From: a virus
Length of the DNA: 64,000 nucleotides
Direction: 5' to 3' (one strand)
Virus record (IMG/VR): IMGVR_UViG_3300025237_000001
Location: 1-64,000 of that record
This document shows positions 9,342-26,749 of the stretch, piece after piece. The number at the start of each line of letters is the position of its first letter. Positions within the stretch are counted from its first letter, which is position 1. The notes under the pieces are model-generated. The model made no database searches and was not told the origin of the DNA. It saw only the letters and a program-made list of their open reading frames with translations. The position numbers and the translations under genes were made by a program.

Positions 9342-10772
9342 TTGGGAAAAACTAAGTCACCTGTAAAGAGAATTGAATTTTTGGCTAAGATGTTTGATGT
9401 GTTCACTGAAGAAGATTTGGGTAACATGTCAACCAACGAGCTGAGTGATGATACTATCATATATAACACTGACGATTCTGGCGATGAAACCATTTATGCG
9501 GTGCATGATTGGAACAAGCGTAAGTTGAAGAACGAGAATTTGTATGTAGTAGGAAAGGTGAGGGTTTACGAAGATGTCTTCGTTGAAATGGTTCAAGCTG
9601 ACCCCACGGAACATAAGGAATATGTTCAATGGATGTTAACTACCTTTGTGAGATTTATCAAGCAAGATAAAGGTGCAAAAGCGATTCATTTTAGCGGTGA
9701 AGATTTATTTAAAGCTTCTGAGTATTTGGAAATATTCCATGCTGAGAAACACAAACCTAAATTTAAGGCTCTCTGTAAGAGGAATAAGGCATTTAAAGAT
9801 ATATCAGACCCGTCTAACATCAATCAATATAGGGATTTATCTCAATTGTATGATGCTGTTGACCCTTATATCATTAGGAATCCTAGTAAACTTGAAAAGG
9901 AAATTAGGATTGCAAGTAAATTGGGTGATGGGAAGATACCTTATGAAGATAGGAAGATGATAATTTTCATTCCTAAGAAGTTAAGGGGTAGTAGAATATT
10001 CAGTAAGTATTCCAATTGGTGTACGTCTTCTAAAAGTGCCTTTGGTGAGTATCGTGGAGATAAGAGTTCAAAGAATGCGAAATCAGATTTATATATCTTG
10101 ATTCCAAAAACGTTTTTATTAGCGGATGGTGACCCTGAAAGGACTAATGAAATTTATCAATTTCATTTTGAACGTAGGATGTATATGGATAGGTCAGATA
10201 GAAGTGTTACGGACCTGAGTATATTTGTTAAGGATAACATTGGTTTAGGTCAATATTTTTATGATGAGTTAATTAGTTTTGCTAGGGCTAATCATAGGAA
10301 TTATCAAAAGAATGTTTATGTTGACGCATTGAAGAAGTTTGGTTTTATAGACTTGATGTTTGATGTGTTACCAATAGAAACTAAAAAAGTACATCTCATT
10401 AATGAGACCATATCTAACTTGGAAGGTATTAATAAGTTTAAAGACGCTTATGCTTTATCTCTAAGGGATTGTAAGCTTGTTGATGTACATCCTAATATTG
10501 GTGACTTGGTAAAATTAACTATTTTATCATTACCTAATAATAAAATTAAGAAACTTCCTAGTAGTATAGGTAAGTTAAAGAATTTAACAGTAATAAATGT
10601 TTCTGGTAATCCAATTAAAGAGATATCAGAAACGATAAAAGAATTAGACACGTCTAATGGTGGTAGTTTGGAATACTTTTCATATGGTAAGAATCAACTT
10701 AGTGATAAGTTGATTGAACAACTTGGAGAATGGTTACCGAATGCTACGTTAAACGAGTTTAGTAAACTTTAA
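9342..10772 (+). CDS. protein with C-terminal leucine-rich repeats
   Basis: LxxLxLxxNxI/LxxLPxxIGxL repeats from about aa 345; uncharacterised N-terminal region with ADPT...YVQWM and NWCTS motifs. Confidence 0.75.
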   Translation: MGKTKSPVKRIEFLAKMFDVFTEEDLGNMSTNELSDDTIIYNTDDSGDETIYAVHDWNKRKLKNENLYVVGKVRVYEDVFVEMVQADPTEHKEYVQWMLTTFVRFIKQDKGAKAIHFSGEDLFKASEYLEIFHAEKHKPKFKALCKRNKAFKDISDPSNINQYRDLSQLYDAVDPYIIRNPSKLEKEIRIASKLGDGKIPYEDRKMIIFIPKKLRGSRIFSKYSNWCTSSKSAFGEYRGDKSSKNAKSDLYILIPKTFLLADGDPERTNEIYQFHFERRMYMDRSDRSVTDLSIFVKDNIGLGQYFYDELISFARANHRNYQKNVYVDALKKFGFIDLMFDVLPIETKKVHLINETISNLEGINKFKDAYALSLRDCKLVDVHPNIGDLVKLTILSLPNNKIKKLPSSIGKLKNLTVINVSGNPIKEISETIKELDTSNGGSLEYFSYGKNQLSDKLIEQLGEWLPNATLNEFSKL

Positions 10773-10836
10773 CATCTAGAAATGTTCCCTTTATATTTCT
10801 ATGATGTTAATTATATTAATTAATAAAATTATAGAA

Positions 10837-11373
10837 ATGGAATTAAAAAACATGGAATGGAGAAGGGTAAATCATGGTCCAATCGGAATGCCTTTAATTG
10901 ATTATTTAGAAATAATAATCGATGAACAACATGAATTAGGTAATAAAATTAAAGTTTGTGTAGGAACAGATTCACAAAAGAAAGGTAAAGGATTTAAGTA
11001 TGCTACAGCTATCTTGCTTGAAATGAAAGAACCTACGGGAATCAAGATTCAAGGTAAAATGACCTATAAAGGGATTGGGGCGAAAGTTATTTCAGGTGTA
11101 TTCATCGAAAGAATCAAACCTTCAATCAGACAAAGAATGCTTAAGGAAGTACAATTATCAATTGACGTATGTTTTCACATTGTTGATTTGATAGATTTGT
11201 ATGACATTGATATGGAAATTCATGCCGATGTTAATCCTAATCCTATGTGGGCATCTAACGTTGCGTTAAGCGAGGTTGTAGGTTTCTGTAAAGGGATGAA
11301 CTTCACATATAAAGTAAAGCCAGAAGCGTATGCTGCATCTAGTGGCGCAGACAAGCTATGCAATGGTGGTTAA
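10837..11373 (+). CDS. RNase H-like protein (YkuK/DUF458 family)
   Basis: VCVGTDSQ...EIHADVN...AYAASSGAD motifs; ATG 10837 preferred. Confidence 0.75.
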   Translation: MELKNMEWRRVNHGPIGMPLIDYLEIIIDEQHELGNKIKVCVGTDSQKKGKGFKYATAILLEMKEPTGIKIQGKMTYKGIGAKVISGVFIERIKPSIRQRMLKEVQLSIDVCFHIVDLIDLYDIDMEIHADVNPNPMWASNVALSEVVGFCKGMNFTYKVKPEAYAASSGADKLCNGG

Positions 11374-11722: not shown

Positions 11723-12412
11723 ATGAAAAACATAATAGAACAATTAGAACGAAGTAAAGAGGCTCTTGTCTCATCTGTCATCTATGATAAACACATACAA
11801 GCCGCTGAAAAGGCTTTCGATTGTATATTTGATGGTACTTCTAGTTTCTATCCATGGGAGAAACCCCAATTAATTCCTAAAGAGTTTAACATAGGTGTAG
11901 TCTATGGCGCATCTGGTAGTGGTAAATCTACCTTACTAGGACAATTTGGTAGTCCGAGTGTCCTAGTATGGGATAACACCAAAGCAATTGTATCACATTT
12001 CGACACTCCTGACGAAGGAATCAACAAATTAAGTGCTGTTGGATTGAATTCTATTCCAAGTTGGTACAAATCTTACGATGTCTTATCTACGGGTGAGCGA
12101 TTTAGAGCCGATTTAAGCCGTTCAATTAAAGATAATGCCGTGATAGATGAGTTTACGTCTGTTGTTGATAGAAATGTAGCTAAAGCTGCTTCTATGGCAT
12201 TATCCAAGTATATTAAAAATAACAATATTAAAAATGTGGTAATTTCGACCTGTCACGAAGATGTTTTGGATTGGTTGGAACCAGATTGGGTTGTAAACAC
12301 GAATAATGGGGAGGTATATGACGGAAATTTTACCAAAGACCAGACATCAATATCGATATATATCGAACAAAGTATAGTGTCTGGTCAATGTTCAAAAACC
12401 ATCACTATTTAA
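11723..12412 (+). CDS. soluble ABC-family ATPase (N-terminal part of a frameshift fusion)
   Basis: Walker A GASGSGKST, signature LSTGE, Walker B VIDEF; no TM partner nearby. Confidence 0.85.
   Translation: MKNIIEQLERSKEALVSSVIYDKHIQAAEKAFDCIFDGTSSFYPWEKPQLIPKEFNIGVVYGASGSGKSTLLGQFGSPSVLVWDNTKAIVSHFDTPDEGINKLSAVGLNSIPSWYKSYDVLSTGERFRADLSRSIKDNAVIDEFTSVVDRNVAKAASMALSKYIKNNNIKNVVISTCHEDVLDWLEPDWVVNTNNGEVYDGNFTKDQTSISIYIEQSIVSGQCSKTITI
12325..12386 (+). other. candidate -1 programmed ribosomal frameshift signal
   Basis: In-frame heptamer A_AAT_TTT (12325-12331), 6-nt spacer, stem GACCAGACAT (12338-12347) pairing GTGTCTGGTC (12377-12386). Confidence 0.75.
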
Positions 12413-12807
12413 GTGGTGAAATATCTAAAGCTAGTAGGTGTTGGGTTGGTGTTTGGAATAATCAGATAGTTTGTTTCGGTGCCAGTATGACAATGCCTTC
12501 AGGTACGCTTAAAAACGCTTGGCGTGGTCATAGGACTGTAGTGTTACCAGATTTTCAAGGAATGGGTATTGGTATGCGTTTCTCTGATGCTCTTGCACAG
12601 ATACATATTGAGGATGGTAAGAGATATTTCTCTAGAACGGCACACCCACGTATGGGTTATTACCGAGAAAAGTCTCCATTATGGAAACCTACATCTAAAA
12701 ACAGAAAGTTAAGAACAGATATTACACACAAGAATATATTCAACAATCATTATGCTGATAATAAACGTGTGTGCTTTAGTCATGAATATCTTGGGAACTT
12801 TAAATAG
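12388..12807 (+). CDS. GNAT-family acetyltransferase domain (-1 frame, open from 12322)
   Basis: HRTVVLPDFQGMGIG acetyl-CoA-binding motif A. Confidence 0.85.
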   Translation: MFKNHHYLSGEISKASRCWVGVWNNQIVCFGASMTMPSGTLKNAWRGHRTVVLPDFQGMGIGMRFSDALAQIHIEDGKRYFSRTAHPRMGYYREKSPLWKPTSKNRKLRTDITHKNIFNNHYADNKRVCFSHEYLGNFK

Positions 12808-25993: not shown

Positions 25994-26749
25994 ATGAAAA
26001 ATAAGAACAATATTAAACCTACAGGATTAAAAGGTAACGACCAATTAAGTAGAATGAAAAGCTTAATGGGTGTAGCATCTATTACTGAAAACACAAAAAC
26101 TTCGGTTGTGGAATTAACTAAAACAGGTCCTGATGGAAAGGTATATGGTATCGTTAGAGAGAACCATAAATATTTCATTAAAATAACTAACAAAAAACAA
26201 AATTTAATTGCTGAGGACTTCAGATATATGGGTGGGTTGCAAAACAAAACCGAAAAATCTTATGATAGTTACTCTCAAGCAACTAAACAATTAAATCTTA
26301 AATTCTTAAGCTTAAATGAAGCGTTAGATAAAACTGAGCAAATCAATGTTTTACAAAACGATAATTTATTAGCTGAATCTTTTGATTCTTATTCTGAAAA
26401 ACCAAAGAAAAGTCAACCAGACTCTACTTTAGGAACTGTTAAAGAAATAGGAAAAAACGATGGTCATGAAGAAGAAATCATTGCAGATACTGGTGAAACT
26501 GGTAACCCTGATGTGAAAACTCCACCAGTTGTTGAAGAAGATGAAGATGTAAACGAAGATACTGATGAAATAACTGAAGAAGAAGTTGTTGAAGAAGAGG
26601 ATGTCGTAGAATTAACTGAAAACGAAAAAGCTATTGATAACATCATTCGTGAACTTAAAGCAGAAACTTTAAACGAAAACAAACCAAGCATTACTACAGC
26701 GATACACAAAATCAAAGAGGGAGAAGAAAGCTCAAAAAAAAAAGTGTAA
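25994..26749 (+). CDS. head-region hypothetical protein (N-terminal part of a putative frameshift fusion)
   Basis: Many [ILV]xE motifs, acidic region; ends in SSKKKV on an A10 run. Confidence 0.7.
   Translation: MKNKNNIKPTGLKGNDQLSRMKSLMGVASITENTKTSVVELTKTGPDGKVYGIVRENHKYFIKITNKKQNLIAEDFRYMGGLQNKTEKSYDSYSQATKQLNLKFLSLNEALDKTEQINVLQNDNLLAESFDSYSEKPKKSQPDSTLGTVKEIGKNDGHEEEIIADTGETGNPDVKTPPVVEEDEDVNEDTDEITEEEVVEEEDVVELTENEKAIDNIIRELKAETLNENKPSITTAIHKIKEGEESSKKKV
26734..26746 (+). other. A10 slippery run, candidate -1 frameshift or transcriptional slippage
   Basis: TCA AAA AAA AAA GTG TAA; the -1 frame is open from 26659 and runs into ORF 26806..28146. Confidence 0.6.

Follow-up and report, generated by a model that had tools for sequence, protein, structure and literature searches.

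Bacterial dnaX is among the closest known parallels to the locus examined here, and Larsen et al. reportedly found in 2000 that dnaX homologues alternate between a ribosomal and a transcriptional route of recoding. In Escherichia coli, the tau and gamma forms arise through a -1 ribosomal frameshift at A_AAA_AAG, together with a 5' Shine-Dalgarno (SD) element and a simple stem-loop on the 3' side, and in Thermus thermophilus through slippage of RNA polymerase on a homopolymer run (PMC5009743). Runs of nine A or T are long enough for efficient slippage by bacterial RNA polymerase, and in Shigella mxiE slippage at a T9 run adds a U and leads to an extended product (PMC5009743). For ribosomal slippage in E. 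coli, H_HH.U_UU.Y motifs rank with the most efficient, provided that they have a stimulator (PMC4066793). The protein family of interest was treated by Iyer et al. (2021; PMC7824862), who described a GNAT coupled to an ABC ATPase, predicted that it places an acyl modification, as yet uncharacterised, on a DNA base, and named Tenacibaculum phage pT24 for the family. The type of signal discussed below is textbook and the protein family is already known as a fusion; our search of the literature, which was incomplete, found no paper on recoding of this gene family.

Gene layout and fused relatives

The window, by which we mean the whole 64,000-nucleotide stretch of viral DNA that was analysed, belongs to an IMG/VR virus record of 197 kb. 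Since that record is rated 56% complete, the phage carrying the window is probably a jumbo phage. The two reading frames and the point at which they meet are defined by the following features:

11723-12412, + strand: zero-frame open reading frame (ORF) for a 229-amino-acid ABC-type ATPase, with Walker A GASGSGKST, a signature-like LSTGERFRADL, Walker B VIDEF and H-loop TCH
12322-12807, + strand: open stretch of the -1 frame, covering linker and GNAT domain, with the acetyl-CoA motif FQGMGIG, of the form Q/RxxGxG/A
12325-12331, + strand: slippery heptamer A_AAT_TTT in zero-frame phase (codons GAC GGA AAT TTT ACC)
12388-12390, + strand: internal ATG of the GNAT frame, taken as the GNAT start by ORF callers

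The -1 frame is closed by a TGA at 12319-12321, opens at 12322, as a first-pass annotation of this DNA had read it, and stays open up to its stop at 12805-12807; all coordinates of that annotation hold. The zero-frame stop of the ATPase ORF lies at 12410-12412, and the last 26 codons of that ORF, from ACC 12332 onwards, are an out-of-frame reading of the linker and the GNAT start. The ATPase motifs are invariant in the alignment. Pfam and NCBIfam returned sub-threshold matches only, to ABC (a weak ABC_tran and the NCBIfam ABC) and to GNAT, the -1 frame matching Acetyltransf_7 and Acetyltransf_1 under the Pfam cut-off, and no solved structure was a close match to the protein.

Two observations concern the surroundings of the gene. 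The order LRR protein (9342-10772), PF04308 RNase H-like protein (10801-11373) and ATPase-GNAT is kept in 50-58 related loci. Elsewhere in the window, reading of the sequence revealed an A10 run (26734-26743) just 5' of the TAA that ends ORF 25994-26749; it is a possible second site of slippage-type recoding in this phage.

Both pieces of the split gene are spanned by a single profile, phrog_11143 (357 positions), which is matched by the ATPase ORF over positions 37-209 (E 1e-59) and by the -1 piece over positions 198-351 (E 2e-41). In 55 of the 68 IMG/VR loci found with the ATPase, both domains lie in one frame, the ATPase part being 47-65% identical to that of the window; the other 13 have the GNAT at -1, twelve of them 59-82% identical and the thirteenth (L068) a partial match. 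A trans-frame protein made by shifting at 12331 aligns to the fused homologues without a gap through RxPxI..I...W..F..HHYL, a stretch that runs from the linker into the beginning of the GNAT (for example, window ...DGNFYQRPDINIDIYRTKYSVWSMFKNHHYLS against fused ...SRGSLRQPDIHLEILPCSYKAWSLFSRHHYLS). The stretch 12331-12387 lies 5' of any ATG and yet is homologous to fused proteins; given the gap-free alignment, its 19 -1-frame codons upstream of ATG 12388 are therefore coding and continuous with the ATPase. Translation across the frames also bore out the junction peptide ...YDGNFYQRPDINIDIYR and the trans-frame length of 361 amino acids given in the first-pass annotation. Among 74 distinct relatives, the zero-frame third positions are the most variable upstream of the site (1.31 bits) and the -1-frame third positions the most variable past the zero-frame stop (1.24 bits), while the interval from heptamer to ATG shows a weaker -1-type pattern (0.80/0.59/0.85).

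We placed the junction on an AlphaFold model of a fused homologue (P0121, from locus L023; mean pLDDT 80). Residues 188-192, in the inter-domain linker, are the only internal low-confidence segment of this model, and the window's last zero-frame Phe and first -1 Tyr align to residues 188 and 189. As modelled, the frame shift falls in a disordered inter-domain linker. Residue 208, the counterpart of the Met of ATG 12388, lies within helix alpha1, past strand beta1 (196-201). In Foldseek searches, the N-terminal half of the model matched ABC nucleotide-binding domains (MalK, MetN and HrtA) and the C-terminal half matched small GNATs (TM 0.62-0.66).

Phage pT24 and further phage members of the family are matched by both halves of the window's protein, and the suggestion of a 'Mom-type' DNA modification, made from the sequence at first reading, agrees with what has been predicted for the family (PMC7824862). 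The pT24 ATPase-GNAT itself is in one frame, but has an in-frame TGA inside the GNAT (L154:1636-1638; ..FTWNGVPV*INVISPLP..) and is annotated as two 'ABC transporter' genes; the TGA could be readthrough, a broken gene or an error. Among isolated phages, a DNA-level search gave two weak matches only (67%), and none exceeded 60% protein identity to the window.

Conservation of the frame break and its signals

Scanning metagenome contigs with peptide patterns that lie far from the junction added 80 loci, all of them -1, and a second scan of IMG/VR added 68 -1 loci and three in-frame loci. The total comes to 163 -1 loci with 106 distinct junction sequences, in which the break is always at the same codon. 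They derive from many independent assemblies, have 59-88% protein identity and show purifying selection on both sides of the break, and the window's -1 clade is monophyletic with respect to the fused outgroups (support 99). The zero-frame stop occupies the same alignment column in 78 of 78 distinct relatives, inside the HHYL codons. Selection for a long zero-frame tail was considered and rejected, the fused relatives being likewise without earlier stops in that frame.

The survey of homologues for a conserved slippery site, proposed at first reading, found one at the same codon in every one of the 163 -1 loci. The commonest form, found in 91 distinct junctions, is a T9 run reading GG TTT TTT TTT; like T8 and T7, it places T_TTT_TTT at this codon. 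Thirteen distinct junctions have shorter runs, slippery at the same codon as in the T9 relatives, and two have T10 (L184; L192/L193), which puts ATPase and GNAT in one frame. The shorter forms are distributed as follows:

A_AAT_TTT: the window's subclade and, separately, L211/L212/L222 (63% identity)
G_GAT_TTT: L070 and L155
T8: L082, L134 and L191
T7: L148

On the tree, the T10 in-frame cases (L184:1750-1900; L192 and L193 in the same region) represent two independent changes within the -1 clade. A scan of a prokaryote genome collection gave one locus only, on a 103 kb contig (L149; PLXT01000052.1) in a Methanobacterium-labelled MAG. It has the T9 form and an LRR neighbour, and since it carries both, it is probably a phage contig wrongly binned into that MAG.

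A -1 split at the same linker is also seen in three isolated Firmicutes phages, Streptococcus phage Javan141 (L152), Oenococcus phage Vinitor-27 (L153) and Thomasclavelia phage TR-TP2 (L151). In each, homology reaches upstream of the annotated GNAT start, and each is annotated as two genes. Reading of the three loci showed an in-phase A_AAG_GGC at the junction of Vinitor-27, GTT TTT in Javan141 and a G5 run in TR-TP2. In the Streptococcus and Oenococcus phages, Javan141 and Vinitor-27, the ATPase-GNAT gene follows a DNA methyltransferase gene.

In the window itself, the claim that A_AAT_TTT fits X_XXY_YYZ in the ATPase frame is confirmed at 12325-12331: TTT (Phe) is the last zero-frame codon and TAC (12331-12333) the first -1 codon. 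In-phase canonical heptamers occur at 0.77% of the codons in the window's ORFs, and at this rate the stretch of about five codons in which the frame has to change would contain one by chance in about 4% of cases. It is comparison, rather than this chance estimate, that carries the case for this candidate frameshift site. A_AA.U_UU.U falls in the H_HH.U_UU.Y class, although the efficiency ranking of that class is that of E. coli and may not be that of the host. Runs of about nine or more A or T, the criterion for transcriptional slippage, are present in the T9 relatives and absent from the window's junction, which has A3T4.

Three further elements flank the heptamer:

12332-12337, + strand: spacer of 6 nt between heptamer and stem, 6 nt in all 13 short-run junctions
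12338-12386, + strand: predicted stimulatory stem-loop with a 10-bp stem and a 29-nt loop (from folding, covariation and RNAalifold)
12308-12315, + strand: SD-like GGGGAGGT, whose GGAGG core ends 10 nt 5' of the heptamer

The stem pairs GACCAGACAT (12338-12347) with GTGTCTGGTC (12377-12386) through nine Watson-Crick pairs and one U.G. Positions 12325-12395 fold with an MFE of -18 kcal/mol (z -4.38), a stability matched by none of 200 dinucleotide shuffles. This upholds the earlier report of a 10-bp stem 6 nt after the heptamer, within the 5-9 nt expected of a stimulatory structure. Two details of that report need amending. The inner TCGATA/TATCGA hairpin can form only 5 bp, with a 4-nt loop (12353-12357 with 12362-12366); being window-specific and unconserved in relatives, it was rejected as part of the signal. 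ATG 12388 does adjoin the stem, but starts 1 nt past its 3' arm and thus lies outside it. Rfam had no family match across 12200-12500. A loop-to-downstream pseudoknot, GAACA with TGTTC, was considered by eye; the columns concerned are invariant.

We then compared the folding of 61 nt after the heptamer position at each junction. A stem of 10-12 bp after a 6-nt spacer is present in 13 of 13 short-run junctions (MFE -14.3 to -21.8; mean z -4.84 for the first ten). Conserved structure is absent from the T9 relatives (mean MFE -7.2 and mean z +0.16 for the first 69), the strongest fold among 24 further T9/T10 junctions has an MFE of -12.5, and the homologous region of the fused clade is unstructured (z -0.25). 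The covarying stem sought in homologues is thus found throughout the short-run junctions but not in the T9 majority. Representative stems differ in sequence:

window: GACCAGACAT with GTGTCTGGTC
L011: GGCCAG.. with ..CTGGCC
L071: GACCAGATAT with ATATCTGGTC
L082/L134: GCCCAACTATC with GATAGTTGGG
L211: GCCCAGATATC with GATATCTGGGC

Across ten sequences, 92.7% of the stem cells are paired and four pairs are changed on both sides, a degree of covariation reached in 0 of 500 shuffles. Sliding the partner arm by 1-3 columns lowers pairing to 24-39%, and RNAalifold recovers the same helix. On a tree of 121 rows, built with the junction columns left out, four changes are required to explain the short-run state; three of the contrasts are on supported branches, each agreeing with stem presence, although a sign test on three contrasts (p 0.25) cannot reach significance. 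The T8 state of L082 and L134 may have one origin, since their monophyly is not rejected (p-AU 0.44). The association of short run and stem is perfect, but few independent events (three or four) lie behind it. What is new here is this contrast, a stem in 13 of 13 short-run junctions against 0 of 91 T9 junctions, together with the covariation test, the T10 revertants and the placement of the shift site in the linker of the structural model.

Upstream of the heptamer, the window's GGGGAGGT would form a duplex of -12.8 kcal/mol with the anti-SD. It is kept in six of the seven sequences of the A_AAT_TTT/G_GAT_TTT subclade, being absent from the G_GAT_TTT junction of L070, and anti-SD duplex energies are -11.7 to -12.8 kcal/mol in the subclade members that have it, against a mean of -4.6 in the T9 group. 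However, none of the window's 79 ORF starts of at least 100 amino acids has an SD or reaches -6 kcal/mol; the mean duplex energy at these gene starts is 0.03 kcal/mol, a weaker signal than at random positions. The motif occurs in the window at chance level and is not rarer. Because the 79 gene starts lack an SD and the motif is at chance frequency, we list GGGGAGGT with low confidence as a possible 5' stimulator. The lack of SD signal and a GC content of 32% in the window suggest a host without SD pairing, as in Bacteroidota, and the SD-like element may be irrelevant in a host that apparently does not use such pairing. A separate observation concerns ATGTTYAAARACCATCAYTATTT (12388-12409), whose nucleotides are nearly invariant across relatives at about 60% protein identity. 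Third-position entropy is 0.36 bits here against 1.24 downstream, a constraint that exceeds what the MFKxHHYL motif requires.

The frameshift reading and its rivals

The comparative data support the core of the first-pass reading, a -1 frameshift that yields a 229-amino-acid ATPase and a 361-amino-acid ATPase-GNAT: homologues are fused, the break is at the same codon in 163 loci, all have a slippery sequence and short runs have a covarying stem. On these sequence comparisons, we consider it likely that the window has one ATPase-GNAT gene with its GNAT in the -1 frame, reached by a dnaX-like ribosomal -1 frameshift giving both products. When ribosomes in the ATPase frame arrive at A_AAU_UUU (12325-12331), the 10-bp stem that begins 6 nt further on would lie at the mRNA entry channel. 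Some of them would then slip back by one base, tRNA-Asn moving from AAU to AAA and tRNA-Phe from UUU to UUU, and read on through linker and GNAT to give the 361-amino-acid ATPase-GNAT. Unslipped ribosomes would read 26 more codons, to the stop at 12410-12412, and release the 229-amino-acid ATPase. The spacing and size of the stem are those of the E. coli dnaX stimulator. We infer that the slip in the window is ribosomal and not transcriptional, that each of the two products has a use and that the upstream GGGGAGGT may assist.

The T9 ancestors of the clade probably reached the same frame by RNA-polymerase slippage, with one extra U, by stimulator-free ribosomal slippage, or by both, and the hairpin would have taken over when the run shortened. 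By analogy with Shigella mxiE, RNA-polymerase slippage adding one U is the likelier route in the T9 majority, perhaps joined by ribosomes that slip on U9 without a stimulator. The in-frame T10 variants are consistent with a run from which mixed transcripts arise in either state.

It could be that the recoding is real but merely rescues an old one-base deletion, the full-length ATPase-GNAT being what matters and the 229-amino-acid protein a by-product. No coding-type constraint is seen on the zero-frame tail itself, and fused relatives work with a single product. Moreover, the T10 in-frame variants survive in two lineages, and the out-of-frame state is therefore not obligatory. Against this, T9 runs change length easily, and yet the -1 state persists in 91 distinct T9 junctions, as compared with two T10; where the long run was lost, a hairpin was built and the frame was not simply restored. 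In addition, the Firmicutes phages split at -1 in the same linker with differing junction sequences, which suggests repeated selection for two products. We regard mere rescue as unlikely.

Gene fission would dispense with recoding altogether, leaving the 229-amino-acid ATPase and a separate 139-amino-acid GNAT started at ATG 12388, their overlap being incidental. The ATG is kept in 74 of 78 distinct relatives, whereas only 6 of 27 in the fused clade have Met there. Furthermore, the window's genes need no SD, so the missing SD upstream of 12388 is no argument against initiation at this codon. However, the 19 -1-frame codons 5' of the ATG are homologous to fused proteins, the ATG position is ACT, CTG or ATC in four distinct junction sequences, and a GNAT begun at this Met would, judging from the structural model, be without strand beta1 and part of helix alpha1. 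The ATG adjoins a stable stem, and fission leaves unexplained both the slippery sequence at the exact junction in every locus and the covarying stem 6 nt further on. Such a fission is improbable, and ATG 12388 is probably an ordinary internal Met, although some initiation may occur at a codon kept in 74 of 78 relatives.

Transcriptional slippage is a stronger candidate for the T9 relatives than for the window, where we think it very improbable that RNA polymerase, and not the ribosome, changes the frame by one extra base at A3T4. In its favour, T9 is the ancestral state of the clade and has the length at which bacterial RNA polymerase slips efficiently (PMC5009743), T10 in-frame variants (L184, L192/L193) exist as expected of a slippage-prone run, and another ORF junction of this genome carries an A10 run. 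Nevertheless, the window's junction has A3 and T4 only, and because this is far below the 9-nt run for efficient RNA-polymerase slippage, a ribosomal slip is favoured there. Each lineage that shortened its run gained a stem spaced by 6 nt, as is typical of ribosomal stimulators, T9 junctions being without one, and a 3' hairpin at this spacing is the signature of ribosomal -1 frameshifting. Finally, although homopolymer frame breaks are a common artefact, a sequencing or assembly error or a pseudogene has a negligible chance, since about 160 related phage loci from many independent assemblies keep the same break, the stop column is shared by 78 of 78 relatives, both sides of the break are under purifying selection, the window's break lies away from any long homopolymer, and at least seven other independent assemblies have the same A_AAT_TTT arrangement, which excludes the assembly error entertained at first reading.

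Returning to the frameshift reading, it is conceivable, though we hold it only tentatively, that the family toggles between RNA-polymerase slippage at T9/T10 and a heptamer with a new hairpin because the ratio of ATPase-only to ATPase-GNAT sets the composition of a heterodimeric ABC-type DNA-acylating enzyme. Dimerisation of ABC domains is textbook, and the ATPase-only form may be a required partner of the ATPase-GNAT. The gene is very common in environmental giant phages: 5,837 protein clusters match at E <= 0.001, and the best 120 of the 5,837 are all of split length. As ORF callers annotate two unrelated genes, the real architecture of the enzyme is missed. The recoding, if real, would be among the more widespread phage frameshifts outside tail chaperones, and would provide a way into a predicted but uncharacterised DNA-modification enzyme. 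The series found in nature, T9, T8, T7 and A3T4, in which a hairpin accompanies short runs only, amounts to a test of slippery strength against stimulator, and also of when transcription and when translation does the slipping.

Comparison with known recoding systems

With the ABC ATPase-GNAT family (phrog_11143; JGI label 'ABC-type ATPase with predicted acetyltransferase domain'), the window shares the profile on both halves and, by the model of a fused relative, the ABC and GNAT folds. Its domains, however, are split between frames and would need recoding, unlike the plain fusion of published descriptions. The phage tail assembly chaperone G/GT resembles the present case as a conserved phage -1 shift by which overlapping frames yield one short protein and one extended at its C-terminus, but the window's gene is for an enzyme and not a structural chaperone. 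With mxiE, the T9 relatives have in common the length of the run and the one-base addition needed for the extended product; the window's junction, in contrast, is without a long run and has a heptamer and hairpin instead.

In the comparison with dnaX, the protein families are unrelated, the heptamers differ (A_AAU_UUU against A_AAA_AAG), and the window's shift would add a whole enzymatic domain. Since the host apparently lacks SD pairing, the 5' element may not act as it does in dnaX. In both systems, however, a single gene would yield a P-loop ATPase protein in two lengths, short and long, and some bacterial dnaX genes likewise make the long form by the shift. The layout of heptamer and simple stem-loop is shared, and the window may also have the SD-like element, 10 nt upstream. 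In both, some homologues have a long homopolymer and no structure, and others a heptamer followed by a stem.
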